Positions 44,595 to 64,000 of a stretch of 64,000 nucleotides of DNA are shown here, piece after piece. Source of the DNA: Phyllosticta citribraziliensis (lineage: Eukaryota); assembly GCF_038025025.1 (NCBI RefSeq), contig NW_027117341.1, forward strand, positions 1,984,001 through 2,048,000, read 5' to 3'. Each line of letters starts with the position of its first letter. The stretch's first letter is position 1. The translations under genes were made by a program, and so were the position numbers. The notes below the pieces were generated by a model. That model was not told the DNA's origin and made no database searches. It saw only the letters and a list, made by a program, of their open reading frames with translations.

Positions 44595-45245
44595 TCAGCG
44601 GGCCGAGCCCGAAGAGCGCACCTCCTGCTTGGGCTTGTCGCCCTCTTCGTCGTCGTTGTCGTCGTCGTCGTCGTCCTCATCGTCGTCCTCGTCCTCGTCC
44701 TCCTCTTCCTCTTCCTCCTCCTCCTCCTCCGACAAGGGCTCGTCCTCGTCCTCCGTGATCATGTTGTCGGGACCGGCGTGGTCCGACTGTCCGTCGTCGC
44801 AGACAGACTTGACAAGGTTGAGGAGGGCGCCCTCCTCGCCTTCGGTCAGCGCGCCCTGGGCGGCTCGGAGCACCAACTCCACGATGTCGGCGTTGGTGTG
44901 CTGGTCACACCGCTTAGCTGAGGGAATATTGGAGGGCTGGGGAGAGCTTACGTCGGGGAGAGCGGGAATGAGGCCAAGGGCCATGGCGCCCTCCTCGCTC
45001 AGGGCCATGCGGCGCTGGAGCCGCTCCCACGCGGGCCAGCGCTCCTTTTGAAATGTTAGCGAATGGCAATGGTATGGTTCAGGGAGGCAAGATCATACCA
45101 GATTGCGAGTGATGTCGGTGGAGAAGCCGACGAAGTGGCGCTGTTCCTCCGCCGTGAGAGGCGGGCTGCTCCTGATGACCTCGGAGAAGTTCGCGAATTG
45201 ACGCTGCTCCTCTTCGGTGAGACGGGGACCGGATGGGGAAGACAT
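44595..45245 (-). CDS. Small protein with a long acidic (D/E) tail
   Basis: MSSPSGPRLTEEEQRQFANF..RNL|ERWPAWERLQRRMAL..; GTATGA..GCTAAC..AAG intron; TATAAAA about 130 bp upstream. Confidence 0.65.
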
Positions 45246-45894
45246 GGTGGTTTTCGGTGGTCTTGGAGGAGAAGAAATGGCGGTCTCTGTGTTGGGATAG
45301 AGGCAGGTATGGAGGTTGAAGGTTGAGCGGTGGTGTCACTTTGTGATGGGTGTCGGCGAACTCTGTGAAATTTTATACCGGGTTTCGCAGCGCGGTCCGA
45401 GGAGGACAGTACTGTCCAGTGCATTTGATAGATGACCACTCCATAGCTTAAATCGCATCAATGATCCCAGCAAATCACACTAGATTTTACTTTGAATTCC
45501 TTGAATAAGAATGGGATCTTGGAGCGGTTTGTTCAGTTGACAGACGAGGTACGGTCCACGCGGCAGGTTCTTTGTTCGAGGGACTACGCGATTCAACCAA
45601 CGTCTATGTATTTGAGGTTGGAAAGTTACTCTGATGCTGATCTGACTGCCCCTGTATCTCTCTTTCGACCCAGGCGTGAGATGAGATGCGGTCAATGGCA
45701 CCACGACAACTTGCAACTTCAAAATGCGCAGGGATGAATTCTTTGCAGACGACTTAGTTGCCCGACCGGATCGTGTAAGTAGTAGAGCAGAAAATCCTCA
45801 TTCTCCTCCTCCTCCTCCTCCTCCTCCTCCTCTTCTGTGATTCCCTTAGATGTCCTGTTTTGCTCCACCTACTTGTCAGGAAAGAGGGCCAGGA

Positions 45895-46330
45895 CAAGGT
45901 GCTATCGACCACGAAGTTGCCGAGGCGCAAAGTCTTGACAGAGAAACTGTCTGATGGGACGCTGCTGGCGCGGACGGTGTTGCGCGCGTATGCCATGCTA
46001 AGATGGTCGAGATACTCGCCGTATCCGTGAACATGGTGCAACATGCCCTTTTCCACGTTGAGATGGTCCAGATACTCGCCATATCCACTCACATGGTGCA
46101 ATATGCCCTTACCGACAAGGTGCTGTCGACCACGGAGTTGCCGAGGCGCACAGTCTTGACAGAGAACTGTCTGATGGGACGCTGCTGGCGCGGATGGTGT
46201 TGCGCGCATATGCCATGCTAAGATGGTCGAGATACTCGCCGTATACGTGAACGCGGTGCAACATGCCCTTGTCCATGCTGAGGTGGTCGAGGTATTCACC
46301 AACGCCGTCAACATGGTGCAACATTCCCTT
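45895..46330. repeat. Two ~221-bp tandem units, each with two ~60-bp subunits
   Basis: caaggtgct(a/g)tcgaccacg near 45895 and 46116; agatggtcgagatactcgcc..atggtgcaacatgccctt occurs four times. Confidence 0.85.
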
Positions 46331-49300
46331 TCCTTCGACTGGCTTGAAGCCTGAAAAGTCAAGGGAGTCTGTATTGTGGCCAAGTTAGTAGCAGTTCTAG
46401 AAATCTGCGACACAGCACTCCTTACCCGAAATCTGTTGTAGTAGCCATTGGCCCCGTCGTTGTGGAGCAGAGTTGGCTGCATCATGGAGCATATTGAGAT
46501 GCGCATTGTATTCCTCCTTCAGCCAGGCCTTCAAAGCACCAATCGCTTCATCAGAAGCCCCGAGACTGGGCCAGCCATACCATTGGAAGACGGTGGTTTC
46601 TGCAAGACCGCTCAGACCACCGAAGGGACAGGTAGATGGTTCTTGGGGCTTGACGTCAAATGTGACTGCGTTATGTCGTTGGGAAAAGAGGGCGGCCGTG
46701 CTATGCTGGCGTTGCTGTCAGCAAAATGTGCCTTCTGGGAATGCACGAAGGACTCACCTGGAACGGTTTGACAGGGGACGAGGTACTGGCCCTCCACCAT
46801 GTACGTCTTGCCGCCATCAAGCAAAGAGCGCAAAGTGGGATCTGGTGCAGCATCGCTCATGCCAGGATGATGGAATCCCAGCTAGTCAGATCGGAACAGC
46901 TCTGCACCGTACGATCCGTGCTTCTCAGAGTTGAAGTTGTCGGCCGCGTACTTTTGCTCGGGTGTAAGACCGCCCAGGCTGGCGAGCGTCACAGCTTTGA
47001 CGAGGCCTTTGCCGTTGGGAGCAAAGAGGCAGCTTTGGGATCAGTCAGCTTGGGTGGTCTGTCTCAAGATGGAGCTCAACTTACGCGAGCCAGATGTAGG
47101 CGTTGGGTGCGAGTTTCACAATGTCCTTTACTGATCCCAAGTCGAAGTGGCTTGTGAGAGCTTCGAGTCCTCTTGCGAAGACCGGCCCTGCAGTTCTGGC
47201 GCTCCAGCAGCACAACTTGGACTTGATCGATCCGACTGGACCAACGGAAGAGATGGTGTAGATTCTGAACGAGAGTGGGCAAAAGTAAAGATGACGGGTA
47301 GAGGATGACAGATCGACGAGGTGGTTGTGGGAGTTGAGTCGGGGGGGCGGCCGGGGGTCAGCGATGGGAACGACAGCTGGCAGGCCCTTGCGCACCTAAC
47401 CCAATTGGGACTCTCTCCATCTTTGGGCAGCTTCATTCAAGGACGAAAAGATCCGGCGCATCCTTTACGCGCTGAATTTGAGCAGGAATCCTTCGCCATC
47501 TTCGTGCGAGGTCGACTTTCTTCACAATTCTTGACTTCCCACGGACTTCTCCAGCAAGGACTCTTAAAGGGTACATCGCCATAGCAGGCTTGCTGGCAAG
47601 CATCCAAGGTCCCTTTCAAACGCTCTGAGCTTGCTTCAGGGAGACAGTGACTAACACGCTTCAGCCTGCCAATTTACTGGACGATTCCAGAAAAGTCCAC
47701 CAAGAACGACGCAATCCAATGCACGAAATCCGTTGAACCAAAGACGAGGGCACGCACAAGGACACACTACAGCACTACTGTTACTGGCGGAGCGGCGATC
47801 AAGCCTCCCGAGGCTCTGAAGAGCTGCACATTGATATGGGACACGATGGGTGGCTGGGGAAGGATTCGGAGAACAAAGCGACCTGCAAGGAAACAACCAG
47901 AGTTACCTCCAGCCGTTTGCCTCCAGCTACTGCTGTTCGAGAAATCCCACAACGGCTGCAGTATATGCCTGCGACGAGCCTTTACTTCTAGAGAATCTCC
48001 CGGGTGCTCTGGCCGTGGAATTCACTACTGCTACCGAACGGAAATCTCTCAGACAGGCCCTAGCGTCTAAATCGCTGTAGAACAACCATTTCGGATACCA
48101 CGGAGCGAAGCTAACAAAACAACGTGAAAGAATTGCCCCTGGCCATCCTTGCCCGTCCTCGTAGTCCGCAGGTCTTGAGCTACGCCCCATCGCGTTTGCT
48201 CCAGCTTTCAAAGTATTCTGGCCCATCCTTATGCGCACCTATCGCTCATCGGTCTCCATATTCAGGCGGAATGGTTGTAACAAGACTGTAGTCGATATCT
48301 TGGATGTTTCGTAGGGATGCGCAGAGCGATCAGCAAGCAGGGGAGCGAGGGAGCCGTCTGGGCCGCCAGCTGTTGACGACGACCAGATCCACATCCTCTG
48401 GAGTTGCGAGGGGACCGCTTGGAATGGGGATGGTCCCATATCCGAATATCGTCCATGCGGGGCTGCATTTCTTTGTTTGGTCATTCGATCGAGCTGGAAC
48501 TTTGCTTTGGGGGGCGTTCTTTTCTTGGGCAACAGCCCGGCCAGCTCCTACGTGTTAGGAGCGAGTCCTGAGAGTCCAGAGTGCGCGTAATAATATGATG
48601 CCAATCGATTCTCGAAGGAAACGCCGTCCTCGTTGCAAAGTTGTTCTGCAAATATCCCTGTCTTGAGACGACGTACCGTACTCTCTAGTATGCTTCAACA
48701 AGGCGCTCGGTCCCCGCTGCTGCAGAGCAACGGACGATGTTTCGTTGGCAGGGCATGGCGGGTGGCGTGAGCCTGGAAGATTCCAAAGAAGTGACGGGAT
48801 TCCGTAAGGCGCTGAAGAAAGTACCTGTTTCCCATCGGCTTCAGGAGGTGACTACTCCTGCTGTTTCCTTCCCTTGTGATCAAGATGGTTCCGGCCTGTT
48901 CGACGTAGACCTAAATGCTTGTGTAGTCTTGTGGTAGCCATCGACAGGGTCGGGCGTTGTGTTTTGAGTCGGTGGCTCGAGTCGGTGGCTGCGCTGTTGG
49001 CTGTGATCTTGGAGATTGGATTCACTTGCGAAGAGGAGACGCAAGAAGATGACCTGCACAAATGGAACGCCCCCCAGGAGTGGAGGAGATTCCTGTCAAC
49101 GTACGGTAGATAGGGTCTGGAGGGGCGACGAGATTTGACGTGGAGAGGAATTCAGGGTCCAAAAAAGAGTGCCCGCGGACATCGCACGCAGCGACATGAC
49201 TCAGGTTTCTTGCAGCCTCGCTGGATCAAAATCCACCAGCGATCCCAGAAGACCACCGCGCGTTTTGTCGCGAACCATTCTTGCATCTCAGTGCGACAGA

Positions 49301-51080
49301 TTTCTGCCCCGTTGCACTCGGGAGTACAGTTTGGCTGCGCACAGAGCAGCCTACGTCAAATTTGGATCCTCTTCGACCCTCGGAGCACCACGAGCTCCTC
49401 CAAGTCCCCTGACGGTTTGCGCTCGCTCCAACATCGACCAAATGGCCCGTGGTAAGTGGATGTCCTACTGAGAGAACATATTATTGACGGTCTTCAGTTT
49501 TCCACTCAGCAGACGCAGCGCGCGCGGCCTCAAAGGTCAAGGATCCACCCACTGCCTTCACCTGACCCTCCACACCGCAGTCGAGCGAGTGCCGGACACA
49601 AGCACTTCTGGCGTATTGACCGCGTCAGAATACACATCTGGGCCCGAAATTCGAGGATACGACGGCTGCCGACACTCCTCCGCTCCTCTTTGGACTGCGC
49701 TTGGATTTCGACCCCTGGAGACGAGACATGGCGCCGATCACACAATTTGGGGGTACCAGGACGCGGAAAGGTCGACAGCATCCATCGAAGGCCCTTGGAG
49801 ACATCGAGGATCGACAGTGTTGGGGAAGAAACAGGTTGACAGGATCCATCAACCGTCGCGGGAAACGCCATGGGTCTCAGCATTTCGACGAGTTCGAGCG
49901 AGCCGGTGTGCCGACGCATGTCCCTATCCGAATGGTTCTTCAAGGTTTGGGACTGCATGTACCCATTAGAGCATTGCACTAGGACCCTTCCACGATCCTT
50001 TACCTCTATCGACTTTCTCCGTCACTGCTTGTCCCGCACAACTGTCAACGCACGGGCCCTTGAACGCGCGGACCGTGCGTTTTGGTTTAAACCGAATAGG
50101 CAGTTTTGGGCCTGGGACTTCGCTAGCGCGGTAGCAAGCTCTGGTGACCAAAGGAAGAGGTATTTCGGCTTTCTGAGAGGCTCCATGACTTCCTGGAAGG
50201 ATTTGGAGCCTGCCAGCCCAGAATCACCCGATCAAGGGCAGGGAACGGGAGGCTATTCGGCAGCACATTGCGTGAGGCCATTCCTTCGCTGGATCTTTCG
50301 AATCTGGGCAGCTGTGGTACACCAAGCTGACAAAAAAACAGCAGTGCACATCCGAATTGAGTCTGGAGGGCGTGAGACCCTTGATCTGGCCCCGGGCTGA
50401 CCTATCTTCAAATGCTTGTCCAAGCATGAACCCGTCGTCGCGGCCCACTCCGTACTACTCTTTCTTTCCTTGTTGGAGGTATTCCACTCAGTTAGAGGCT
50501 CCACACACACTGAGCTGCCGTTTCTCTAGCCACACTCTCCATCACAAGCGCGTTCTGGAATCAATCGGAACAAGCCAATTGCCAGCAATCGGTGGAGCTG
50601 GGACCCCCTGGATTTCGTCAGCCAGGCGCAAGAACACGGAGCCCAATGACCAGTCATCTTGGTTCGATGTGTCGCTCCCCAGCTCCACGAATGGTGGGTG
50701 GTGCTTTTCTTGAAAAGAATGAGGTTGGAGAGGGCGGTGAACATTTCGGCTAAAGCCCTGCTCTACCGGCAGACCCCAGCTCCACTCGAGCCCCTTGAGG
50801 AAAAGCGTGCGATAGCGCCGACGGCTTAAATCCAACGTCGCCGACGACCTCGCTCCTGCAAAAGCTTAGATAAAGCCGACGCATATGCATGACAGCGCGA
50901 TTTCAGAGCGGGGCGGATACGCCCTACGCCCTGTCTTGGCTACAAGACAACTTTCCCGCTATATAAGCTTAGCTGGCCTCAATTGACGTCCGTTTCCGAA
51001 ACCTCCGTTTGCTGCAACAGATCCAAAGCTCGTCGCTATTCCTCTTGAAATTTTACAGCTCCGTCTACTCCATAGTCATC

Positions 51081-51653
51081 ATGCCGGCCAAGGTTGCGAT
51101 TCTCACCAAAAACGCTCCCCCGCCGTTGCCCGGCGTCCTGTCTCAGGGCATCGTTGCCAATGGCACCGTCTTCTGCTCCGGCCAGGTCGCCGTAGACCCC
51201 GCCACTGGCAAGATGGTTGAGGGCGACATCGCAGCACGCACGGTATGTCTCCGTCTTCTCTCCGCCGCATTCCGCGCTTCTGACTGAGCCGCACCGTAAA
51301 ACGCGCGGGAACAAACGCAGGAGTAATCACGGGGACGCTCGCTAACTACTCCTGCAGCACCGAGTCATCAAGAACCTGCAAGCGGTCTTGGAGGCTGCGG
51401 GCACCACCATCGAAAATGTCGTCAAGGTCAACGTCTTCATTGACAACATGGACAACTTTGCCAAAATGAACGAGGTCTATATGCAGTACTGGGGTGACGT
51501 CAAGCCGTGCCGGACGTACGTATCCCCCAGCCATTTCCTCCATATTTTGCCCCTTTCGAACCGACGCTTATTTTGTATCCCAGATGTGTTGCCGTCAAGA
51601 CTCTCCCGCTCGGCACCGACGTCGAGATTGAGTGCACCGCGGTCCTGCCGTAG
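51081..51653 (+). CDS. RidA/YjgF/YER057c/UK114 family protein (Mmf1/Hmf1-like)
   Basis: SQGIVANGTVFCSGQ, VVKVNVFIDNMDNFAKMNEVY, KPCRT|CVAVKTLPLGTDVEIEC; two introns. Confidence 0.93.
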
Positions 51654-53740
51654 GTAAATATCTCGCATGCCATCGGAACCCGCCATTTTCTTACTGGGAG
51701 CTGTAGGTCTGCTTCGCCGAAGCTGTAGAGCGTGCCGTTCGTTCTTTTCGTTCAAGACTAGGGCTTTTGTCAGTCTATTGAGCTTCTTCTGCAGGAATGG
51801 AAGCCCTGAAATTGTGCGCCTGGGAAGCACCGGGACCTTAGGCGTCGAAAATTGCGTCGGTCGCTGTTTGCGCTGATAGTTGCCTCGCGTTCTCGGGCTC
51901 GTCCTTGGTATGGACTGCGATGGAAATGGCTCCTTCATGATAGAAAAGACACGAAAATGAATTCTTTCCTTTCTGCAGCGCTTCCTGAATGCTCTTGGCC
52001 CACGGTTTGACAATGCCTTGCGCAGCCGCTTGTTTGCAATGGAGGTTCGATGAGAATCCATTTGCTTGTCCGGCCTGGAAAGATCCCGAGGACCCTTTTG
52101 TTCCTCCTTGATTTCCCAGCGCGTCATGCGCTATCTTTTCCCGTTCACTGAAAAATCCGTGTGCCCCTCCGCCTGTCTCCTTTTGCCAGTGTCCGAGAAG
52201 AAGTGCTTGTGTCCCACAACTTGGAAGGAAGGTTTCCGGGGCGCTTGGGAAATGCGGGGGCCGAGATGGACGGTTCCTGATTTACTTGATCAGCTCGGAA
52301 AGTAGCGGCGGGATGAAAGGGAATCACAGTCCAACAGGACCGCCAGACTGGTTGGAAACGTGGAGGGGCTATTCCGGATGCATAATTCAGGCGCCTGGGT
52401 CATCTCAATTGCGCCAGCGGGCGGCATCTCTGCGTCTGGACTAGTGCGAAGCCAGTTCGACTCTGGATATAAAAAGGGCCTTTGCTTCGCCGGTCTTCCA
52501 GCACCCACCTTATTTCTGCCCTACGGAAGAACAATAGTGGCTTTTACGATTTGCACATTGAAACCCCTCTTGAGAGTGGTCGCATGCAGCCTTGCCCATC
52601 ACCAAACCCTCCGAGTCTCTACGGCGTTTGGTGGTGATTCATGGGTACGAAGTTGGCAGCGCAAAGTGACGGAACCGTCTTGTGTACTTGCTACCTTTGC
52701 CCTCCAATGGCACTGGTGGCTTGCGAAAGTTCCTACATTCAAGTGACGTAAACTCCCAGGCGCAAGGAGGCCTTTCAAATGCGCCCACATGGCGGTTGTT
52801 TGCGCCCGTTGGGCCCCTCTATGCCGAAACCCACTAGTACAAATCGAGTCCTGCTACGGGTATAAATACCTCACCCGCTTCTCAACTACCGACGCCATCC
52901 CACTTCCACCTCGAAAAAGATAGAATACGCAGTTGAGCGACCCTTGTTACGGCTTATGTTTATGAAAGCCTTGGATCATCACCAAGTGCCTTGGTCTCTA
53001 CAGCCCTTGGTGGTGATCCAGCGGGCGGCACAAATCAACAGAAACTTGCCTTGTTTTCATTTTGGCCCTGTCCGTGGCCTTGGTGACTCGCGGCGATTCC
53101 CACACGTACCTAAGCGGATGAGATTTTTCCGCGTAGGCGCCTCCACGCAGGCGACCCTTCCAGATACTCCAAGCGCCTTTGCCTTCTCCGACTGCGCCCG
53201 CAATTCGGCTAAGCGAGTCCTGCTGCGGGTATAAATTCGGCCTTCGCCCTCCCAAAACCATCCCTTTGATCCTACAAGCCGGGCACAACGACATCCTGTC
53301 TTACGTGATTCAGCCTTGATACTTGGCGCCTCTCTCATCGCTGAGTGCTTCAACTCTCTACTGCACTTGGTGGTAGTCCGGCGAGCGTCGTAAAACAACG
53401 GACTCTAATAACCGCTACCTGAGCCTGCCCAATGGTCTGGTGGTAACAACAGTTCCGACATACGCACTTTTTCATTGAGTCATTGGCCTTGTGTTGGTGC
53501 TCGGGGAAAAAGCTACTGTGGTTTTGCAAAATGCTGTTCTATCCTCTATGCTACGAAAACGTGCCAAACCGCGGCGGACTTTTCATCACGTTGCGGAGGC
53601 TTCAAGATGAGGGAGTGTACTTTGGAGCTCCAGTCTATTTTGTGAACTTTCAATGAAGTTGCATTTTGGCTTGTGTACCCGGCCACACGAGAAACAGCCG
53701 GCCCTCCTTGTCGCCATCGTAGCCCTTGTCCTCATGCCGT

Positions 53741-54298
53741 TCAGACCTTGGGAGAAGTCTTGCCGGTCAGCCATCCGGCCGCCTTCTTGACCCAGGCCTT
53801 CAACCTGCTGCGCCTTTGGCCCTTGCCCTTGCCCTTGTTCTTGTCCTCCCTGGTTCCTCCAGCCATTCCGTTCTCTGCCGGCACGCGAGTGGCGGAGACC
53901 AAGCCTGTGCCATTGTGGGGAGCATCTTGAGGGGCCACGCCGGCAGTCGAGGTGGGAGAGTTGCGGGGAACCCTCATGACGTTGGAGTCCTCGCTGGCTC
54001 CGCGGAATCCTAGTTTCCGGTCAATTTCAGGACGACAATCGTGAGGAAGGTCTCGCTTACTTGGCTCGTAGCTGTCCAGAGAGTCAAGGACAGTGATGTG
54101 CCTGCCAGGAGTAGGCGTCGCATACCCGTCTGTCAAATCTGTTAGTGATAATGTGCGTAGAGGATATGAAACTGGACAGTAAGACTCCATACCAGGAAAC
54201 GAATCGAGTCGCAGGCAAATGCCGAAGGTTCCCTCGACTCCCGGAGGGATCTCGTTGAAAGGATGGGGGGCTCTTCTCTGGAGATGATAGGTCGGCAT
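53741..54298 (-). CDS. Hypothetical protein
   Basis: 185-aa ATG ORF with no recognised motif; divergent from the snoRNA host. Confidence 0.35.
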   Translation of the reverse strand: MPTYHLQRRAPHPFNEIPPGVEGTFGICLRLDSFPGMESYCPVSYPLRTLSLTDLTDGYATPTPGRHITVLDSLDSYEPSKRDLPHDCRPEIDRKLGFRGASEDSNVMRVPRNSPTSTAGVAPQDAPHNGTGLVSATRVPAENGMAGGTREDKNKGKGKGQRRSRLKAWVKKAAGWLTGKTSPKV

Positions 54299-54902
54299 GA
54301 TGGTAAAGTGGGATGCGGAACTTGCGTGCGTGTAGCTGAGAGAGAAGATCTTGCCTTTGGTGTTGCGGAACTTCTCTAAGGATTAGTCGTTTCTCGGCAC
54401 TGCTGGAGATTCTGGGTCGACAGGTCCAATCGAACCAAGTACATTCAGCTGGTGAGCGACAGAGAACCATTGTAAAAATTCAGGGCAAATTTCGACTGGA
54501 TTTCGAACGCATGATCGCAATATTCCATAGCTCTTGAATCATGAATGCAGCTTTGATTCAATCTTGGAATGCTTCTTGTGGGCTGGGTGTGCTTGTATCG
54601 GCGTTTGCTTACATCGTCGTGGAGATATCTAGAAGTAAGTCGGCCTGTCCTCCCACCTCCAACACGAAACACGCACCACAAACGCACCTCTCCCCTCCCA
54701 TCCCAATTCAAGCCCCATCAATCCATCTTGTCTCAGCTCGATCTACTTCAAGCTTCCTCTTCCTGTCATTCGAGTCGTGCCTTCGCGCTCTGTCGTTTCC
54801 GTCGCCGTTTCGGCGCACGGGATCTGGCGCTCGCAGACCAAACCGGTGAGTCAACTCCAAGTTTGCGACCAAGCCGCGTCGCACTCTCTCTTCCCTTTCC
54901 CC

Positions 54903-55055
54903 ATGACGAGACCTTGGCAGAACAGAATCGAGTCCTTCTCTCGGTCCTGCGATTGCGCATCGCTGAAGCCGCCTCGTGCTGGTTTCACGGTCGCGCAATC
55001 GCCAGTTCAACCAGAGATTGCGACGCTGCGAACAACCCAAGCTACAACCATCTGA
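54903..55055 (+). ncRNA. Box C/D RNA, intron 1 (long, internal hairpin)
   Basis: Intron 54846-55135; C ATGACGA 54903, D' CAGA 54923, D CTGA 55052, branch 55112. Confidence 0.65.
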
Positions 55056-55279
55056 GCCTTTCATCCTTACATGGCCGTCCAGTATGTCATTTTTCCTTCA
55101 AGTTCCCCTTTGCTGACTTGTTTCCTCCCGAGCAGACTTAGCGGCGCGCGTTTCTTCCGTGTGCGGCGGCTTTTGGCTTGGTGACTCTCACCTCCCAGCC
55201 AGACTTTTGGCACGCCCTGCATCTTACAATCCCATCTCAGTAAGTTTGTCCCCATCTCAACACTCTTCCCTTTACGGGC

Positions 55280-55343
55280 GTGATGACCACATTTAAATTT
55301 GCACGACCGTGAGGGTGCACCCAATGATCGTCGATCCTCCTGA
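55280..55343 (+). ncRNA. Box C/D RNA, intron 2
   Basis: Intron 55240-55415; C GTGATGA 55280, D 55340, branch 55391. Confidence 0.75.
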
Positions 55344-55589
55344 TCCCCTTGCCTTTCCTCGCCGAACTCTCCCACCTTCACCGTACCAACGCTAACCTTT
55401 TCAATATCCCAAAAGGTTCATGTGCCGAAGCCTTTGTATTTCGCGTCGCATCGCCTGTTGGCAGAGATCCTCTGGGCCCTTTCGAGGCCGCACACAATAT
55501 GGACAAGACATTCCCTGGAGCAACATCGAGCAATTTCCGGTCTCCCTTTGAAAGGCTTTGTAAGTCCTTGTCGCTTTGCCGACCTCCAC

Positions 55590-55647
55590 ATGATGACCGT
55601 ACTATTTTCAAGAGCGGCGTTGCCGCGTGGCTACACACAATCTCTGA
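55590..55647 (+). ncRNA. Box C/D RNA, intron 3
   Basis: Intron 55560-55706; C ATGATGA 55590, D 55644, branch 55695. Confidence 0.75.
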
Positions 55648-55793
55648 GCCATCACATCTCGTCTTCCGCACTCGTCCCACATCTTAAACACCGCGCTGAT
55701 TCTCAGACAGATTTCGATACTCGAGCAACGCCCACGCAGGCAGCACCAGTAAGTCCGCACTGTCGCTCCGCGATCAACCGCAACGACCTTTGC

Positions 55794-55858
55794 ATGATGA
55801 AGCCACAGAAGTTCATGGACATGAGCAGTTTTGCCACTGATTCAACCAACCTTACTGA
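55794..55858 (+). ncRNA. Box C/D RNA, intron 4
   Basis: Intron 55749-55924; C 55794, D 55855 (alternative CTGA at 55837). Confidence 0.7.
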
Positions 55859-56046
55859 TTTCCGCCCTCTCGTTTGTTTTTCCTCGAGCTTTAGCGCACA
55901 TGCTTAACTTTTGTGATTTGGTAGACACCGTATCTCGAAGCAGGCATCAGAGCGCAATGCATCTTGGCCTCCACCTCTACCTGCTTTCATTCAATGCAGC
56001 AAAGATAACCCAAATAAGTTTTGTTCCCTTTTTCCATTTCAGATAC

Positions 56047-56112
56047 CTGATGACGCAGAAAGCAAGAATTTGAGAGGTCCCGCCGGCCGAATGTAAAAAG
56101 CACCACGTCTGA
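56047..56112 (+). ncRNA. Box C/D RNA, intron 5 (donor reads ATAAGT)
   Basis: C TGATGA 56048, D 56109, branch GCTAAC 56159, CAG 56183. Confidence 0.6.
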
Positions 56113-56267
56113 TCCACCTCCCCTATTCCACTGTCTTGTTATGAATACAAGAAAAATGGCTAACACAAACCGTACGTCGACAGGGCTGCCTTCAACGGAA
56201 GGCTTCTGACAAGTCACCAGACAATCAGTGAGTGCACTGATTCCCCGCTTTCCCCTTTCCATCGATC

Positions 56268-56318
56268 GTGACGACAGCTTTGGGTTGATACACGTGATTC
56301 TCCTCTTCCTTCTTCTGA
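56268..56318 (+). ncRNA. Box C/D RNA, intron 6 (short)
   Basis: Intron 56228-56386; C GTGACGA 56268, D 56315, branch 56365. Confidence 0.65.
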
Positions 56319-56563
56319 CATCTACACTTCGCTTTTCATTTCGAAGCCCATGGTACAAACTTCCGCTGATTCATTGTGCCCTGCAGAACTGCACCGCCGG
56401 TCAGTCACTCCCCTCCTATCTCAGCCCCGACTAGCCGACCATGGCGCATGATTTCGTCTTGGATATCTCGGCCATCCTGAACGGACACAATTTCCTCTAA
56501 GGCGCGCCTGGTAAATCCATGCGACAGGTAAGTCCATACACATACCACATCCACCAGTATCCT

Positions 56564-56629
56564 GTGATGAACCAATCAAGCATGCAAATGAGTGGCTTGA
56601 ACGAGCACATGACTTTACAAAACATCTGA
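56564..56629 (+). ncRNA. Box C/D RNA, intron 8
   Basis: Donor 56528; C GTGATGA 56564, D 56626, branch 56676. Confidence 0.78.
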
Positions 56630-56773
56630 CATACTCCTCCTCCCGTCTTGGTCCTCTTGCACCTTGAAAGCAATGGCTGACATTCCTCGTGTAAGGACAG
56701 CACACTTTTCAGGCTCTCATTCGGACGAATTCGGTACGTCATCCCAGCGTTTTACTTTTTTTTTCCCTTGCAA

Positions 56774-56843
56774 ATGATGAACGACTTTTCGGTGTGGAGC
56801 GCAAGTTATTTGCTGCGTGAACACACACAGTTTCCTTTTCTGA
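56774..56843 (+). ncRNA. Box C/D RNA, intron 9
   Basis: Intron 56734-56921; C 56774, D 56840, branch 56900. Confidence 0.75.
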
Positions 56844-56981
56844 TTCGCAGGATCGATTGCTGTCTATCTACATGGTTGCTTTTTGAGCACATTCCGGTCG
56901 CTGACTTCTCCCATTGAACAGGAAGATCATGCTCCTCCGTGTCCGTAAGTTCCTGCACCCTTCTCTTCCCTGCCGTACACC

Positions 56982-57065
56982 ATGATGATCAAATCTCTAA
57001 CGAGAAGTGGGCACTGTCCGCTCCAAGACTGATTACACATGTTTTTATCTATTTTGCCGAACTGA
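56982..57065 (+). ncRNA. Box C/D snoRNA, intron 10; candidate 25S rRNA guide
   Basis: Intron 56945-57127; ATCTATTTTGCCGA before box D is antisense to 25S UCGGCAAAAUAGAU. Confidence 0.88.
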
Positions 57066-57194
57066 TTGATCCAACCCAATTCACCTTGTTTGATTTTCAG
57101 AAATTTGCGGACGCTGACTTCTCACAGTTGATACTGCGAACTCCCTTTCGTGCAACAGTAAGTTTCCTACCCTTCCTACTCCCTGCCCTACTCC

Positions 57195-57280
57195 ATGATG
57201 ATCCAAATCTATCTTACATGAAGTGGACGCTGTCCGCTACAAGATCGATTAGATGCGTTTTATCTATTTTGCCGAACTGA
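57195..57280 (+). ncRNA. Box C/D snoRNA, intron 11; paralog of intron 10 RNA
   Basis: Intron 57158-57340; same 14-nt antisense element at 57262-57275. Confidence 0.88.
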
Positions 57281-57593
57281 TTCATTCTACCCTCTGTCTA
57301 TTCTGGCTCGCTGTTGCGCATTGCCGACGCTAACTCCCAGTCGACAGGATTACTCTTTCATATTCGCATACTTAACACGCAGGGATGGTGCTTCCCTCAA
57401 AACTCCAACGCGCCGGTAAGCTCTCTTCCCCGTATACTCGCGAGTATCCTCGCTAGTCCTTACATTTTAAAGCACCCGACGCTTCACAGGCTTCCGCAGC
57501 GCTTCTTTTGCACCACCGCCACGAAAGTGCCTCCAAATATGGCTGATATCAACGCAAGTAAGTGGCAACTCCCCCCACACACTTCCCCTTTGA

Positions 57594-57667
57594 ATGATGA
57601 GCCGTGTCGTCATGCTTTTGAGGTCGGGCTTTTCTACTCGATCGACGAGATTCCCACACACTTCTGA
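57594..57667 (+). ncRNA. Box C/D RNA, intron 13
   Basis: Intron 57558-57729; C 57594, D 57664, branch 57717. Confidence 0.78.
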
Positions 57668-57810
57668 TTTCATCAATTGCTTTCTTTACCTTTCTACACA
57701 CATGTTTTTTGCAGGAGCTGACATTCCAGACTGAGGCAGTGCTTGCTTGGCCCACACAATACGATTCCCGCATGTGAGTGACCAATCCCCTCCTCGCGCC
57801 ATTATTGCAA

Positions 57811-57882
57811 GTGATGAGTCCCTGATGTTGTTCTGAGGTCGAGGTTTGCTTCCTGATCGAAGATGTCATCTAACCGTTCTGA
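57811..57882 (+). ncRNA. Box C/D RNA, intron 14
   Basis: Intron 57774-57951; C 57811, D' 57833, D 57879, branch 57931. Confidence 0.8.
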
Positions 57883-58024
57883 CTGTTTTTGCAACCCTCC
57901 CGTTTCTTTGCATTTAGGTTCCTGGCGATAGCTAACATTCTGTTGAACTAGAGAGCCCCTCGTACAATCCTGAGAATCAACGCAGGTAAGCTGTGCTCCT
58001 CACCTGCTTCCCTTTGCCCGGTAC

Positions 58025-58073
58025 ATGATGATTGAAACTCGCGGAGAGAATGACGACATTTTCGGCCTTCTGA
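58025..58073 (+). ncRNA. Box C/D RNA, intron 15 (49 nt)
   Basis: Intron 57986-58141; C 58025, C' ATGACGA, D 58070, branch 58121. Confidence 0.72.
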
Positions 58074-58201
58074 TTGCCTTTCCTCCTGCTCTATTTGTTT
58101 CAGCTACTTCATTCTGACCCGCTGACGCTGTTTTGTTCTAGGAATCGTTTGTAGCGAAGCGCGTAAGTATTTCCCTCCCCAGTTCCCTATCTACCCTTCC
58201 T

Positions 58202-58290
58202 GTGATGTCAAATTCTTGCAGAAGTCGACGTTGTGGGCTTAACGGCCTGCCCTGTCGACGCATGATCTGGACTACACTCATTCCATCTGA
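58202..58290 (+). ncRNA. Box C/D RNA, intron 16
   Basis: Intron 58163-58355; C GTGATGT, D' CAGA, GTCGAC stem, C' ATGATCT, D 58287; 10 nt (ACTCATTCCA) antisense to 18S UGGAAUGAGU. Confidence 0.72.
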
Positions 58291-58432
58291 TGCTCTTTGC
58301 CACTACTCGATTCATCTCGAACGTTGCTTCCATCCCGAGGTAACGGAAAATTCAGATCACGTTACGATTGACGCGAATTCGAGTTCCCACCGGTAAGTCT
58401 CCCCTGTCTTCATCTCTGTTTCCCACCCTCGT

Positions 58433-58498
58433 ATGATGATCCAATCTCTTTGACTGCCGATTTTGTCGGCTGTATGACTACTTAGAATGATTTTCTGA
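58433..58498 (+). ncRNA. Box C/D RNA, intron 17
   Basis: Intron 58393-58574; C 58433, GCCGA/TCGGC hairpin, D 58495. Confidence 0.8.
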
Positions 58499-58644
58499 TT
58501 CCTTTCCGTCTTTTTCGAATCTTGCTGTTCTCCGGCTTTCGCGAAGAATCCAAGCTGATGTTGCGCCACCGCAGATACTGTCATCGATCGGTACTCGCGA
58601 AACACAACAAAGGTCAGTCTTGCCACTCTTTTGTTCGCCCTGAC

Positions 58645-58709
58645 ATGACGAGAAAATATATATGGAGGCCGACACGCGCGGCCACGTGACGCTTTAGTAG
58701 TTTTTCTGA
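58645..58709 (+). ncRNA. Box C/D RNA, intron 18
   Basis: Intron 58613-58783; C ATGACGA 58645, C' GTGACG, D 58706. Confidence 0.72.
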
Positions 58710-58851
58710 CACGCCTTCTGTTTCCTCTGGATTGAGTGCATGTCCAGACCTTCCTTTGACTGACTTCGATCTCTGGTGGACAGCACCGTCTTCAACTCAA
58801 TGCATTCCATGCTGGTGAGTCTTCCGCTACTCCTTCTCCATTCTCCCTGAC

Positions 58852-58925
58852 ATGATGAACAAACTTTTCCGACTGTTGACACCGTCGGCTGTGTGGACAC
58901 ACAACTATTGCATATGACTATCTGA
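58852..58925 (+). ncRNA. Box C/D snoRNA, intron 19; candidate 18S 5'-end guide
   Basis: Intron 58815-58995; GCATATGACTA before box D is antisense to 18S UAGUCAUAUGC. Confidence 0.85.
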
Positions 58926-59063
58926 GTTCTCTTTCCTTCGCTTGCAATCCGCTCTGAACATCTAGAAAATTCTTACTAAGCCCGTGCATATCCAGGAAGC
59001 AACTTTCATGGTCGTTCGTCCAAGTAAGTCCTCCATTCTCCCCCTTCTTGCCTTTTTCCTCAG

Positions 59064-59129
59064 ATGATGACCATGACCAAGTCGAGGCCGACTTCGTCGG
59101 TCCATGGAGCACTTGGATGCGGCATCTGA
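59064..59129 (+). ncRNA. Box C/D RNA, intron 20
   Basis: Intron 59024-59196; C 59064, GGCCGAC/GTCGGTC hairpin, D 59126. Confidence 0.8.
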
Positions 59130-59263
59130 TCCGTCTAAATTCTTCTCCACTCCTCCGAAGACCGCATGGGCACCGGCTGACGACCGGCATACTTAGTTCA
59201 AGTCACCCTCACTGTGATCACATTCAAGTAAGATTAGCGCCCAAATCTTCCTGTCGCTCCTTA

Positions 59264-59354
59264 ATGATTACAACCTACCACTTCTGAGTTCGACGATGTC
59301 TATCCATGAAAAACACTTTGTTACCTAACATTGTGTTCCCTTGCACGTCACTGA
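59264..59354 (+). ncRNA. Box C/D RNA, intron 21; candidate 25S guide
   Basis: Intron 59228-59424; C ATGATTA, D' 59284, D 59351; TTGCACGTCA antisense to 25S UGACGUGCAA. Confidence 0.72.
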
Positions 59355-59533
59355 TTCAAGCAACACCGAGATATTCAGTCAGCCCCGCGGGAGTAGGACT
59401 ACTGCTAACATTTGGTGCTACCAGGCAGGTCTGCTCCATTCCTTTGCTCAGCCAAGAAACTTGATGAAGCCGTTGCCGAAATGAGTAAGTTACTTCGTCC
59501 CCTCATCCTTCCAATGCCTTCCACAACATATTC

Positions 59534-59604
59534 CTGATGATGTCAGATTGGAAGAGAACTGAACGACTGGCTCGACCAGCTGTTGATGCACACACTTTTT
59601 CTGA
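59534..59604 (+). ncRNA. Box C/D RNA, intron 22 (shared-scaffold subfamily)
   Basis: Intron 59485-59674; C 59535, D' 59559, D 59601. Confidence 0.82.
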
Positions 59605-59732
59605 TCCCGTTTTATCCTTACACTACCACCAATGAATCTTCCACCTTGACAACTGCTAACAATTTGATGAATAGATGCGGCAAGCAGCTTTTTACGTACG
59701 TTGTTCGGCCCGTCCATTCCTTTCCCCTCCGC

Positions 59733-59807
59733 ATGATGGATACATACATTGGGAAAAAGTTCTGAACGACTGGACTGCAGCCGTTGACGTATACCTTTCA
59801 TTTCTGA
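59733..59807 (+). ncRNA. Box C/D RNA, intron 23 (shared-scaffold subfamily)
   Basis: Intron 59696-59867; C ATGATGG, D' 59762, D 59804. Confidence 0.8.
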
Positions 59808-59986
59808 CACTAGCCACATTTTCCCACCTCCAAATCCGTGAAATTCATTGCCGCTGACGCATGACAGGACCAGAATAGCTTCAGTTGCCCTCAAATCGCA
59901 TTTTCGGCGAACAAACAGCCTTTCAAGTAAGTTGTTATGGCCTTCCGCCAACAAAGCTCTCAACCATTAATTACCACAACCCTCGA

Positions 59987-60063
59987 ATGATGATGATATA
60001 TTAAGCTCAGGAAACTGAACGACTGGCTTGACCAGCCGTTGACGTACATACGCACACTTCTGA
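59987..60063 (+). ncRNA. Box C/D RNA, intron 24 (shared-scaffold subfamily)
   Basis: Intron 59927-60128; C 59987, D' 60015, D 60060. Confidence 0.83.
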
Positions 60064-60260
60064 GCCCCATTGCTTCTGCCCCTACCTCACTCCCGAGTCT
60101 TCTGTATTGCACTGGCTGACGCAAATAGCCAACCATGTACAGATGCTCCGCAAAAACTGTCCTCTTGTCCATTCGGACGCTTCCATGCCAGGAGTTGTGC
60201 GGAAGACAGCCTTGCAACCGTAGTAAGTCGCCCTGCCCCCTTGTTCTCTTTCACCCCTTC

Positions 60261-60335
60261 ATGACGATACTCCCAAACAGTTCAGTGATCTGAACGACTG
60301 GCCTGACCAGCCGTTGACGCCAAACCCATATCTGA
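60261..60335 (+). ncRNA. Box C/D RNA, intron 25 (shared-scaffold subfamily)
   Basis: Intron 60223-60404; C ATGACGA, D' 60290, D 60332. Confidence 0.8.
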
Positions 60336-60765
60336 CCCCGCGCACCGCTCTTCTATCCATCGCAAGGTGCCGAGTTGAAGACGGCTGACGCGCAATACAT
60401 CTAGACGTGCCCTCTCAACCCCTGAGCAAGCCGGCCCAACCCCATTTTCTGCAACTACTTGTCCAGCAGGGGAAAGAGTAGCCGCTCCCATCTGCAGGTC
60501 AGTCTGCACGAAGCCGTCATCGCCAGAGCAGCCGACTGAGCCCTGATTGTCGAGACGCGCGAAGCCGACCGGCGCGGCCTGCTGCTTGGTGTTGTTACAC
60601 AGAAAAGCCGATATCTCTCCAGCCCGTCGAGCTGCGAAGCAGATACGCGCTCTGTTAACAACAACCACGCAGTAAAGAAAAGGGTTGGGCATTCCGTCTG
60701 TTTGCACATTTCGTTTTGACAGGTACGCCGCCTCTCCTCCGTCTCCTCTGCTCCAGAGCGCGCAC

Positions 60766-60844
60766 ATGATGGAAAACTCGAACCCATGGCTTGCATGAGT
60801 ACCGAATCTGACTGTCCGGTCATGACTACACAACTCGCGTCTGA
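60766..60844 (+). ncRNA. Box C/D RNA, intron 27
   Basis: Intron 60723-60924; C ATGATGG, D' ATGA 60795, C' ATGACTA, D 60841. Confidence 0.77.
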
Positions 60845-61007
60845 GCGCTCTCTCCTTTCCTTTCTCCATCATCTGGGACTCCCCCTCGCGGAACCGATCG
60901 CTAACGCACAAAACGCACGTATAGGCTACACTCCGCGCGGGAGAAGCCATTTCGTTGTAAGTGTGTCCACACCCTACCCTCCTATCCTTCGCTCCCTGGG
61001 CGCATGC

Positions 61008-61084
61008 ATGATGAGACACGCACGCATGGCTTACATGAGTCCTGGATTTGACCGTCCAGTGGTGACTAAGATATTAGCGTCTGA
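61008..61084 (+). ncRNA. Box C/D RNA, intron 28; paralog of intron 27 RNA
   Basis: Intron 60957-61161; C 61008, D' ATGA 61035, D 61081; GCATGGCTTA antisense to 18S UAAGCCAUGC. Confidence 0.82.
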
Positions 61085-61463
61085 GCTTTTTGCGCCCCGA
61101 ATCTTCTTTCGCTTGAGTCTCGTTTGTTGCGCGTTGGCTAATTCATGGAACTGGTGGGCAGGTCGGCGGTGGGTGTCGGGCTAGGGCGTCAGGGCGGTGC
61201 CGCGGTGCTGTGTTGGATGAATCAAACTGCCGTGTTTTTCAGGGTTGCGTGGCGTTGTGGTGACTTTGGATAGGCAGGATACGTTGAGGCGTGGAACAAG
61301 TGTGCGATAGCACTGAACGACGAAAGAAAATGGTTGACAGGCAGAGAAAACTCCACCCGGGTCCTGATTTCTCAAATGATGGCCCGAAAGATGCAAACCC
61401 AGACCCTCGTATCCCAAACGCCTTGAAACGCCTCAAATACAAATCGAGCCCGAGCACAGCGCC

Positions 61464-62064
61464 TCAATCCTCGCTGCGGTCCCTCCGATAACGGTCGTCC
61501 CTGGTGGCCTCCTCTCCGACCTCCTTCTTCATGGCGTCTCTCAATCTCTCCTCCTGTTTTCTCCAGTGGCTGCCCTCCTCGTAGTCTGCGCTAATGCCGA
61601 GGGCTTTCCGCAGCTTCTCGCTCTCCTCGATCTTAGCGGCGGCGAGCTCGTGCACTTGGTGCGACTTGAGCTTCTGCGCCTTGGACTTGTCCATCCGGTC
61701 ATTCGAAGACTCGGCCTCCTTCTGCAGCTTTTTGCGCAGGGCGTCGCATTGGTCGTCAATGTCGTCCTCGTCGACGCTGGGGCGCGTGTTAGCAAGGTTC
61801 GTCTGGTGGTTGCGGCGGTGGTCATGCGCACCCTTCGTCCTCCAGCCGGTCTCTCAGCTCAAACACCTTGACTTCGATGGCGCGCTTGCGGTCGTGCTCG
61901 AGGATCTCGCGGTCGGGTTGGCGCTGGCGGTGCTGCTTGATTTGGTCGTAGTCCTTGGTGTAGGGCGCAGCGTTGTCGCGCGGCCTGAGGAGCGAGAGGT
62001 TGCGCTGGACGTAGCCGGATGTGCCACTGCCGCGCGGCGTCGAGAGGCCGACGTTGGAGGACAT
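61464..62064 (-). CDS. CWC21: Pre-mRNA splicing factor Cwc21
   Basis: MSSNVGLSTPRGSGTSGYVQRN, ILEHDRKRAIEVKVFELRDRLED, YEEGSHW; intron 61777-61831. Confidence 0.95.
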
Positions 62065-62277
62065 GTTGGTTGAGGTTGTTGACGGAATAATGAGTGTCGT
62101 CGGCTCGGAGGTTTGAGGTTCGCCGCAGCAGGCCGTGGCCAGTGAATTCGTAGCCGCAGCTCCGCAGTGGACGCAGGTAAAGTGCGGCAACAACCTTTTT
62201 GCTAGACTCATGCCCCTCCATGACGAACTGTCGCACTCTCTCTTCGACGCTTCTGTTCCTTCGCACTCATCCAGAAA

Positions 62278-63702
62278 ATGGCAGGCTTTGATGACTCTTC
62301 GATATCGCAATCGGCGGAACCGTATACCTCTCTTCCTTTTTCTCCGGTAACCAAGCAGCATATTCTGAATTGCTCGTACCATTCCTGGCATCCACGGTAA
62401 AGACTCTTCGCAATTGCGCAAACAACGACGGCAGCTTACCATTTTGACAGCTACCGCAAGGTCACCCCAAAAGCCCGCCTGATCCCTTTGACCGCGCCCT
62501 TCCTCTCATACCTACGCGCAGACGGCATTCTTCTGCCCGACGACGACGCCTCTCCGCCGCGCGACTGGTCCGACGACGACAGCGGCATCTTTTCTTCGTC
62601 CGAGAATCCAGACGCTGGGGAGGAGAGCGACGATGAAGACCCGTCGGCAGAATGGCGCCACTTGCACTTGCAAATCAAAAACACCATCGAAGAGCTGGGG
62701 GGCAAGGTGGTGCCCAAATTGAATTGGAGCGCGCCAAAAGACGCGACATGGATGAATGCTAATAGCATGGACTGCCGCACGCCGAGCGATATCTACCTGC
62801 TGCTGAAGAGCAGCGACTTCATCACACACGACCTGGAGCATGCGTTTGACGACACGGAGGAGCCTGCGCAGTCGAATGCAGCAGACGAAGCGCAGGCCGA
62901 CCCCGAGATACCCTACCATCTCGTTTTGCGCAAGCACTTTTTGATCAACCCGTCGCTCGAGTTCCGTTGCTTTGTGCGGCGGCGCAATGTTTTGGCCATC
63001 TCTCAACGCGACCTGAACCACTTTGAATTCCTCTTTTCCATGTCCGGCACTCTCCGCTCCCGCATCGCATCTTTCTTCGACGACAATCTGAGAGACACCT
63101 TTCCCGACGAAAACTTCGTCTTCGACGTCTACGTCCCCCCGCCTCACGACAAGGTCTGGCTGATAGACATCAATCCGTGGGCGCAAAGGACGGATCCGCT
63201 GCTGTTTAGCTGGCTGGAGCTCCTCACCATGGACGGGCCCGATTCGGAAGAATGGGTACAGAAGCAAGAGGAGCAAGAGGCCAGAGCAGCAGCGAACGTC
63301 GTGTCCATTCCCATAGCACCAGCTCAGCCAACCGACTCCAGCCCGCCTTCATCCACGGCTGCCCCGGCTTCCAGCAGCCATCAACGCCAAGACGCGGACC
63401 ACGACGACAACGCCTCCGAAGCCTCCACCATTACGCCATCCGACTCGGAGGAGGAGGACGACGACGACGCAGACGAAGAAATCTGGACCCCCGAGATCCG
63501 CCTCGTTAAAAAGGACGACCCCGAAGCCTACAGCTTCGCATCGCCGCAATACAGCGCGCACAAGCTGCCGCGGGACGTTGTCGACGCCAGCCGCGGCGGC
63601 GAGGGCGCCATGCGCGAGTTCGCCGAGCAATGGAAGGAGGTGCTAGCCAGAGCCGAGCGGGGCGACCAGCAGGCCAGCGACAGCGACGGCGATGACGAGT
63701 GA
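62278..63702 (+). CDS. CDC123: Cell division cycle protein 123 (D123 family)
   Basis: [74 protein letters not shown]. Confidence 0.95.
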
Positions 63703-64000
63703 GGAGGGACCTAGGGACATGAGGGAGGTTGAGCGGGGCGCCGCCAAACATCTGATGCCGTCGCTGTCGCTGTCGGTGCTCTCCACGGCGCAGCTCGCTG
63801 TGACTTGCCCCACACCGCGTTGCGGCAATTTTGAGAGCAACGTCAAACGTCGCAATCGCCGTCGATTTCCCCTCGCTGCGTGGTCGTTGGGCAGGCGTCT
63901 GCGAACAATGCTGTGAGTTTATTGTGCTCTCCTCAGAAGCTCTCGGGCGAAGGCGAGACTAAGCTACCGTCGAGTGCGGGCAAAGCGGACCCACACCTGT

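Follow-up and report, generated by a model that had tools for sequence, protein, structure and literature searches.

Near-constant spacing between box D and the branch point in an array of 25 intronic box C/D snoRNAs of the fungus Phyllosticta citribraziliensis

The distances between intronic small nucleolar RNAs (snoRNAs) of the box C/D type and the splice sites of their introns have already been charted in the filamentous fungus Neurospora crassa and related to mammalian work (Liu et al. 2009, PMC2780460, cited here for parts of its text). In that species, 45 of the 55 box C/D snoRNAs are intronic, and five of the six snoRNA clusters are in non-coding hosts that resemble UHG. The distances to the 3' splice site are reported to be similar to those of Drosophila, the 5' distances are mainly of 41-60 nt, and mammalian work is cited for the importance of the 3' distance. 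Another arrangement is the conserved polycistronic snR72-78 cluster of ascomycetes, which has up to seven snoRNAs in ~1.5 kb (Canzler et al. 2018, PMC5824354, also used in part). Here, we analyzed a stretch of 64,000 nt of Phyllosticta citribraziliensis (RefSeq assembly GCF_038025025.1, contig NW_027117341.1, positions 1,984,001 to 2,048,000 of the forward strand), hereafter the window, whose first letter is position 1. It contains an array of 25 short introns, each with one box C/D snoRNA placed at a near-constant distance from the branch point. The region is a non-coding, UHG-like multi-snoRNA host gene with one box C/D guide per intron.

The locus shares several traits with what the consulted parts of the N. 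crassa study describe: one box C/D snoRNA per intron of the filamentous-fungus type, a host with only short open reading frames (ORFs), and animal-like distances to the splice sites. It differs from it in the number of snoRNAs, which is 25 here, whereas the clusters described there hold two (CD16, CD37) or three (CD6, CD9, CD17). It also differs in the reference point, since we measured distances to branch points and that study measures them to splice sites (the word 'branch' does not occur in PMC2780460). As in the snR72-78 cluster, fungal box C/D snoRNAs are grouped in one transcript, with a maximum of seven there against 25 here, as far as the part of that source goes.

Work by Hirose and Steitz in 2001 and by Hirose et al. 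in 2003 and 2006 is said to have established that mammalian intronic box C/D small nucleolar ribonucleoproteins (snoRNPs) assemble in a position-dependent way that is coupled to splicing and involves IBP160/Aquarius. In yeast, Vincenti et al. in 2007 reportedly found that the distance from the snoRNA's 3' end to the branch point matters for the yield of U24 and U18. In that system, each snoRNA is said to be alone in a host that codes for a protein and has long introns, whereas our locus has 25 snoRNAs in one non-coding host. The combination of a non-coding host, one snoRNA per intron, and many tandem units is also that of the mammalian UHG, GAS5, and SNORD116/115. Hosts of the GAS5 type carry ~10 different snoRNAs, and the SNORD116/115 arrays repeat a single one. 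The mammalian placement rule is textbook knowledge, yet it is based on a few minigene experiments and broad genomic histograms. According to passages of a review that also mentions the placement of SNORD116, intronic box C/D snoRNAs have an optimum ~50 nt upstream of the branch point, and Aquarius/IBP160 aids their assembly (PMC8162545). Our array is similar to the mammalian intronic box C/D snoRNPs of these passages in having ~50 nt to the branch point and ~70 nt to the 3' splice site, in being mostly devoid of extended terminal stems, and in that the sequence of the spacer is irrelevant. In contrast to mammals, the introns here are minimal, and hence the 5' side is constrained too.

The array spans positions 54846-61161 of the forward strand. 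Its introns are 151-287 nt long (median 181) and are separated by 24 segments of 21-318 nt, 15 of which have at most 44 nt. It is interrupted by three longer stretches free of units (56387-56527, 57348-57557, and 60405-60722), and the period from donor to donor is ~205-230 nt across much of its length. Every unit has the same organization: a GTAAGT-type donor is followed by box C, the snoRNA body, a CTGA box D, a branch motif, and a YAG acceptor. All introns have one box C/D pair, and the donor, branch, and acceptor signals could be identified in all of them. Box C is identical to RTGATGA in 15 units and has one mismatch in the remaining 10. Box D is CTGA in all units, CTGA being itself the search pattern. 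The donor is GTAAGT in 14 introns, and the branch motif is CTRAY in 22, with non-consensus motifs in units 4, 14, and 17. In unit 5 (56014-56023), an ATAAGT starts 4 nt upstream of the non-consensus donor, which may be decayed. Acceptors were defined as the first AG at least 7 nt beyond the branch A and are found 8-20 nt past it. The snoRNA bodies, from box C to box D, have 49-153 nt (median 72), and all 25 have the make-up of intron-encoded box C/D snoRNAs. An earlier reading of the letters of this DNA by a model, made without database searches (the sequence-only reading), had counted the same 25 units between 55052 and 61142. We found all of them; the first of these positions is the box D of unit 1, and the second is where the branch motif of unit 25 ends.

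We measured the distances within the units by script, from coordinates and generic motifs, and defined the gap as the number of nucleotides that lie after CTGA and before the branch motif of 5 nt. The gap ranges from 45 to 57 nt (median 49, mean 49.9, standard deviation (sd) 3.43), with 16 of the 25 units at 47-50 nt and 17 at 47-51 nt. Counted from the last base of box D, the branch A is 49-61 nt away (median 53, lower edge 49 nt) and the 3' splice site 60-80 nt away (median 69, sd 5.4). The medians of 53 and 69 nt match the position-dependent class of snoRNAs, in which ~50 nt lead to the branch point and ~70-80 nt to the 3' splice site. On the other side of the snoRNA, 29-60 nt separate the donor G from the first base of box C (median 39, sd 7.6), with 21 units at 29-45 nt and 16 at 36-40 nt; the latter interval compares with 5' distances mainly of 41-60 nt in the parts of the N. 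crassa study cited above. The branch point is supported as a better anchor than the 3' splice site; the variance of the distance to the former is smaller (sd 3.4 vs 5.4, Brown-Forsythe p = 0.038). The gap is also tighter than the 5' spacer (sd 3.4 vs 7.6, Brown-Forsythe p = 0.047). These measures agree with the sequence-only reading, which had reported gaps of 44-57 nt, mostly 47-50, and mostly 30-45 nt from donor to box C. The offset of 1 nt in the gap comes from including, or leaving out, the purine that precedes CTRAY. Its description of the units as intronic box C/D snoRNAs spaced as in mammals is equally borne out, with 53 +/- 3 nt between box D and the branch A and ~69 nt to the 3' splice site.

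The regularity of the gap does not come from the choice of box D. Box C and the branch motif enclose only one CTGA in 13 of the 25 introns, whose gaps are 47-57 nt. Furthermore, an automatic rule returns all 25 gap values by taking, among the CTGAs that end 20 nt or more ahead of the branch motif, the last one. Hence, the box D assignment was not cherry-picked. For comparison, we took the 223 branch-like motifs of the forward strand of the window outside the array and of the entire reverse strand. Of these control motifs, 4.5% have a gap of 45-57 nt, compared with all 25 motifs of the array (binomial, 2e-34). When each snoRNA was placed uniformly at random in its own intron (10,000 trials), the gap had an sd of ~25, and the lowest sd of any trial was 15, vs the observed sd of 3.43. 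A composite regular expression for the whole unit gave 19 matches, all of them in the array and on the forward strand; neither strand has any in the rest of the 64 kb. We also observed a weak positive correlation between the gap and the length of the snoRNA (rho = 0.47, p = 0.018), on which we do not rely since it is one among several tests.

The spacers have similar lengths and unrelated sequences, as the sequence-only reading had put it. The median pairwise identity of the downstream spacers is 0.54, vs 0.52 for shuffled sequences. We searched them column by column for a conserved element, and none of the columns reaches 1 bit except that of the G preceding the branch motif. We therefore dropped the idea that the spacer hides a conserved element. 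Both flanks are rich in pyrimidines, another point on which the two analyses concur: they make up 75% of the upstream flank and 66% of the downstream one (76% in the first 25 nt and 55% in the rest), vs 51% of the snoRNA bodies.

The units were also thought to be devoid of obvious terminal stems, and this holds for 22 of them but fails for units 19, 24, and 25. Contiguous pairing beside the boxes has a mean of 2.2 bp for cognate flanks vs 1.88 bp for non-cognate ones, and reaches at least 4 bp in only 4 of the 25 units. The duplex energy of the 25-nt flanks is at background in 22 units (mean of these cognate pairs of -2.43 kcal/mol vs -2.58 kcal/mol for non-cognate pairs), which is the absence of extended terminal stems that characterizes the position-dependent class. 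Taken together, the 25 cognate pairs have a lower duplex energy than permuted pairings (64 of 5000 permutations were as low), an effect that is wholly due to units 19, 24, and 25, the only ones with stems above background. The 7-bp external stems of the paralogous units 24 and 25 differ in sequence, i.e., they show compensatory change, and the gaps of these units are among the longer ones. Because the stems of the two paralogs keep 7 bp with different sequences, this comparison suggests that the external stem of this family is real.

The array includes groups of paralogs, namely units 9/10, 20-23, and 24/25, with body identities of 0.67-0.84 against a background of 0.55. Units 9/10 are the most similar (0.82-0.84) and have an identical stretch beside box D, which indirectly supports a putative guide there, while the remaining body differs. 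Identity is 0.67-0.73 among units 20-23 (59485-60404), which have in common an internal hairpin, with a D'-like CTGA on one side and a C'-like box on the other, whereas the guide regions that flank it are different. The copies look as if they had arisen by duplication and had their guides replaced afterwards. The paralogs allow comparing the two spacers over the same history. In units 20, 21, 22, and 23, the 5' spacers have 52, 37, 60, and 38 nt, the largest difference being 23 nt. The 3' spacers have 51, 46, 52, and 49 nt and are thus at most 6 nt apart. Both 5' and 3' spacers of paralogs are near background identity, and their alignments require 2-9 gap events each. The earlier claim that spacing was kept despite divergence is thus supported, by spacers at shuffle level in sequence and by the tighter lengths of the paralogous 3' spacers. 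A constraint on the length only of the spacer between box D and the branch point is well supported.

To characterize the host transcript, we used the assembled contigs of a public run (X1, RNA by presumption), which were compared over positions 44001-64000. After a shift within the stated ambiguity of the joints, the exon junctions of the contigs fall exactly on the GT..AG ends that had been predicted for units 15-18, and they coincide with the intron limits given in Table 1. Splicing is thus shown for 4 of the 25 introns. As the joints match the predicted ends, they confirm the acceptor rule and, in unit 17, the assignment of the CTAAG branch motif. The other 21 introns have either no cover or unspliced cover. 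Cover is absent over 54673-58007, which is most of the array, and only unspliced over units 22-25; we draw no inference from either. When the 25 introns are removed in silico, the spliced product has ~2.1 kb and its longest ORF starting with ATG has 104 amino acids. Hence, we regard the host as non-coding. Ordinary introns outside the array have 51-115 nt (six of six contig joints), and all are shorter than any of the snoRNA introns. It follows that a spacer of ~50 nt is not the default architecture of introns. There is a candidate for a snoRNA-free intron of 73 nt in the array itself (57416-57488), where the 210 nt that separate units 10 and 11 offer a GTAAGC donor and a CAG end.

Table 1. 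Coordinates of the snoRNA-bearing introns and of their host transcript. Positions are those of the window; boxes C and D are given by their first base; the gap is in nt.
Feature	Positions	Strand	Box C	Box D	Branch A	Gap	Remarks
Unit 1	54846..55132	+	54903	55052	55116	57	153-nt body; alternative acceptor 55135
Unit 2	55240..55415	+	55280	55340	55395	48	
Unit 3	55560..55710	+	55590	55644	55699	48	
Unit 4	55749..55924	+	55794	55855	55907	45	second CTGA 55837; branch A in TTAAC
Unit 5	56018..56183	+	56047	56109	56163	47	donor GTTTTG, non-consensus; box C CTGATGA
Unit 6	56228..56386	+	56268	56315	56369	47	
Unit 7	56528..56695	+	56564	56626	56680	47	alternative acceptor 56700
Unit 8	56734..56921	+	56774	56840	56904	57	5-bp flank stem
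Unit 9	56945..57127	+	56982	57062	57117	48	paralog of unit 10
Unit 10	57158..57347	+	57195	57277	57333	49	paralog of unit 9
Unit 11	57558..57729	+	57594	57664	57721	50	
Unit 12	57774..57951	+	57811	57879	57935	49	
Unit 13	57986..58141	+	58025	58070	58125	48	shortest body, 49 nt
Unit 14	58163..58355	+	58202	58287	58343	49	branch A in GTAAC
Unit 15	58393..58574	+	58433	58495	58558	56	spliced contig confirms ends
Unit 16	58613..58783	+	58645	58706	58763	50	spliced contig confirms ends
Unit 17	58815..58995	+	58852	58922	58978	49	branch A in CTAAG; spliced contig confirms ends; weak snR56-like match 58848-58927
Unit 18	59024..59196	+	59064	59126	59180	47	spliced contig confirms ends
Unit 19	59228..59424	+	59264	59351	59408	50	donor GTAAGA; degenerate box C ATGATTA; interrupted external stem, -9.5 kcal/mol
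Unit 20	59485..59674	+	59537	59601	59659	51	paralog group 20-23
Unit 21	59696..59867	+	59733	59804	59857	46	paralog group 20-23
Unit 22	59927..60128	+	59987	60060	60119	52	paralog group 20-23
Unit 23	60223..60404	+	60261	60332	60388	49	paralog group 20-23
Unit 24	60723..60924	+	60766	60841	60904	56	7-bp external stem, -13.5 kcal/mol; paralog of unit 25
Unit 25	60957..61161	+	61008	61081	61141	53	branch A in CTAAT; 7-bp external stem of other sequence, -15.7 kcal/mol
Non-coding host transcript	54700..61400 (approximate extent)	+					four splice joints; ORF scan

The explanation that we favor, with a probability of roughly 0.6, is that the non-coding host carries 25 mostly stem-less guides whose assembly requires a given position relative to the spliceosome, and that selection keeps the length of the spacer but not its sequence. 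Most units have no terminal stem to join boxes C and D. Assembly would therefore be position-dependent, relying on the place of the snoRNA beside the spliceosome. With its end 53 +/- 3 nt from the branch A, box D would be just upstream of the zone of the U2 small nuclear ribonucleoprotein (snRNP) and Aquarius/Cwf11. Aquarius (AQR) is reported at ~40 nt from the branch point, in work cited by a 2026 structural paper (PMC13736545, in part), and passages on the spliceosome of Schizosaccharomyces pombe place Aquarius(Cwf11) between the U2 snRNP and Syf1 (PMC4830896). The C/D motif would then sit ~10-15 nt upstream of the AQR binding zone. Splicing would be followed by debranching and exonuclease trimming, which would release the snoRNA from the excised intron while core proteins on its C/D motif protect it. 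Under such a scheme, selection would hold the spacer length as its sequence drifts. Here, we infer the coupling to the spliceosome, the route of processing, and the identity of the factor.

Several observations weigh against this explanation. The stem-bearing units 19, 24, and 25 keep the same spacing as the others (gaps of 50, 56, and 53 nt), such that the logic of stem-less snoRNAs cannot be separated within the array. The 5' spacer is clustered too, with its mode at 36-40 nt, which the mammalian model is not known to predict. To our knowledge, Saccharomyces cerevisiae has no ortholog of Aquarius although its intronic snoRNAs are position-dependent, and the coupling factor may thus differ. 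One contig of run X1 crosses units 22-25 unspliced (59959-61776); it corresponds either to antisense read-through of the neighboring gene or to retained introns of the host merged by the assembler. Finally, a search of the whole window against Rfam gave no match at the gathering threshold, and no unit could be named. Ranking by E-value gave weak matches only, the best being snR56-like, with 22.8 bits against a threshold of 54; a search with a single unit gave snR56 at E = 0.21. The body of unit 1 (54903-55055), twice as long as the median, has a long internal hairpin (54947-55004) that results in a spurious match to a microRNA family; a search of this unit alone against Rfam gave nothing relevant.

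The missing Rfam families, a guide function that is predicted only, and the shortness of words such as CTGA and CTRAY might lead one to think that the words were picked to fit and that the units are not snoRNAs. We give this next to no credence, and it is close to refuted: many introns leave no choice of box D, the automatic rule reproduces every gap at a low control rate, the composite pattern is confined to the array, four introns are spliced exactly as predicted, and units 9/10 conserve the stretch beside box D when other parts of the body differ. One might also expect near-constant spacing without selection if the array grew by tandem duplication of a single intron-plus-exon unit, each copy having the spacing of the founder. 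The donor-to-donor period and the clear paralog groups are in line with such a history. Yet, the spacer sequences are at shuffle level, and the lengths of paralogous spacers stay within a few nt in spite of the gap events that their alignments need. The 5' spacers of the same paralogs and the exons (21-318 nt) vary much more, and a 3' spacer held tighter than 5' spacers and exons of the same history argues against pure inheritance from the founder, which we consider improbable.

A further explanation dispenses with positive coupling and invokes a steric floor together with the compaction of introns, in which case the spacing protects the splicing of the host instead of acting as a ruler for assembly. 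A snoRNP less than ~45 nt from the branch point would block the U2 snRNP, one near the donor would block U1/U6, and deletion bias, in a genome of short introns, would shrink both spacers to the minimum. Misplaced snoRNAs reportedly impair splicing in yeast (Vincenti et al. in 2007). The shape of the distributions fits this idea, since each of the two spacers has a sharp lower edge and a tail to the right (skew of 0.94 and minimum of 45 nt for the gap, skew of 1.15 and minimum of 29 nt from donor to box C), and it explains the gap as well as an optimum does. The clustering concerns both sides and not the 3' side alone, and the shortness of the ordinary introns makes compaction pressure plausible. 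On the other hand, four units at 56-57 nt have not collapsed to the minimum, and the mammalian experiments, in the passages of PMC8162545, describe an optimum that aids assembly and not just a floor. Sequence data alone do not separate the floor from the assembly ruler. We hold the floor to be possible but doubtful, and retain position-dependent assembly as the preferred explanation. The earlier proposal that the mammalian ruler acts here stands for the match in distance and for the length constraint anchored at the branch point; as for the ruler itself, the skewed, sharp-edged distribution fits a steric minimum equally.

We searched for related arrays and for precedents. A metagenome scan with the 21-nt stretch beside box D of units 9/10 gave one match, in a contig of 4021 bases without a snoRNA array. 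This contig is densely coding, bacterial-looking DNA, and we rejected it as a related array and took the match as due to chance. A search of the literature found no description of a fungal host gene with 25 snoRNAs, the supplements and figures of the Neurospora study being outside its scope. The passages of PMC4202332, PMC11028025, and PMC12309372 that we consulted gave nothing on the spacing of fungal snoRNAs.

The surroundings of the array were also annotated. The unspliced contig mentioned above extends in full over 59959-62079, and it continues over an intron of the reverse strand (61777-61831) into the neighboring gene of that strand. This convergent gene (61400-62442, reverse strand) encodes a cwf21-domain protein, a splicing-factor domain (Pfam PF08312, E = 1e-10). 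Its position beside a snoRNA array is probably a coincidence. Next to it, at 62488-63702 on the forward strand, is a gene encoding a protein of the D123 family (E = 2e-103). We considered that the reverse strand under units 23-25 could be protein coding, but dropped this since its ORF of 245 amino acids has no Pfam match. Outside the array, the region 45335-46001, beside short repeats, has a very high contig depth in two public runs (~42000 and 2400).

The spacing in this array repeats a placement rule known in mammals, yeast, and Neurospora, and is thus a clean but largely expected result. The unusual part is the presence of 25 guides in one gene, judging from the literature search. Their number compares with the 55 box C/D snoRNAs of all N. 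crassa (PMC2780460, in part), and one locus can thus hold a large share of the methylation guides of a fungus. More tentatively, the locus may be the largest diverse snoRNA host described in fungi. Its unrelated spacers may also calibrate, to the nucleotide, a ruler that concerns length only, with 53 +/- 3 nt to the branch A and a hard lower edge at 49 nt; this ruler would have its anchor at the branch point instead of the 3' splice site, and a looser one of 36-40 nt would be on the side of the donor. The measurement of the spacing is unusually sharp because the branch points can be read from the sequence, the introns are near minimal, and there are 25 independent spacers. The general picture of how such snoRNAs are made is unchanged by the array. 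It is useful for calibration, with ~53 nt to the branch A and a second favored distance next to the donor, and as material for experiments. If the edges of the two distributions reflect the footprints that the U2 snRNP/Aquarius module and the 5' splice-site complex have against a snoRNP in assembly, the array would provide a natural test bed with 25 replicates for the coupling between splicing and the assembly of snoRNPs in minimal introns.

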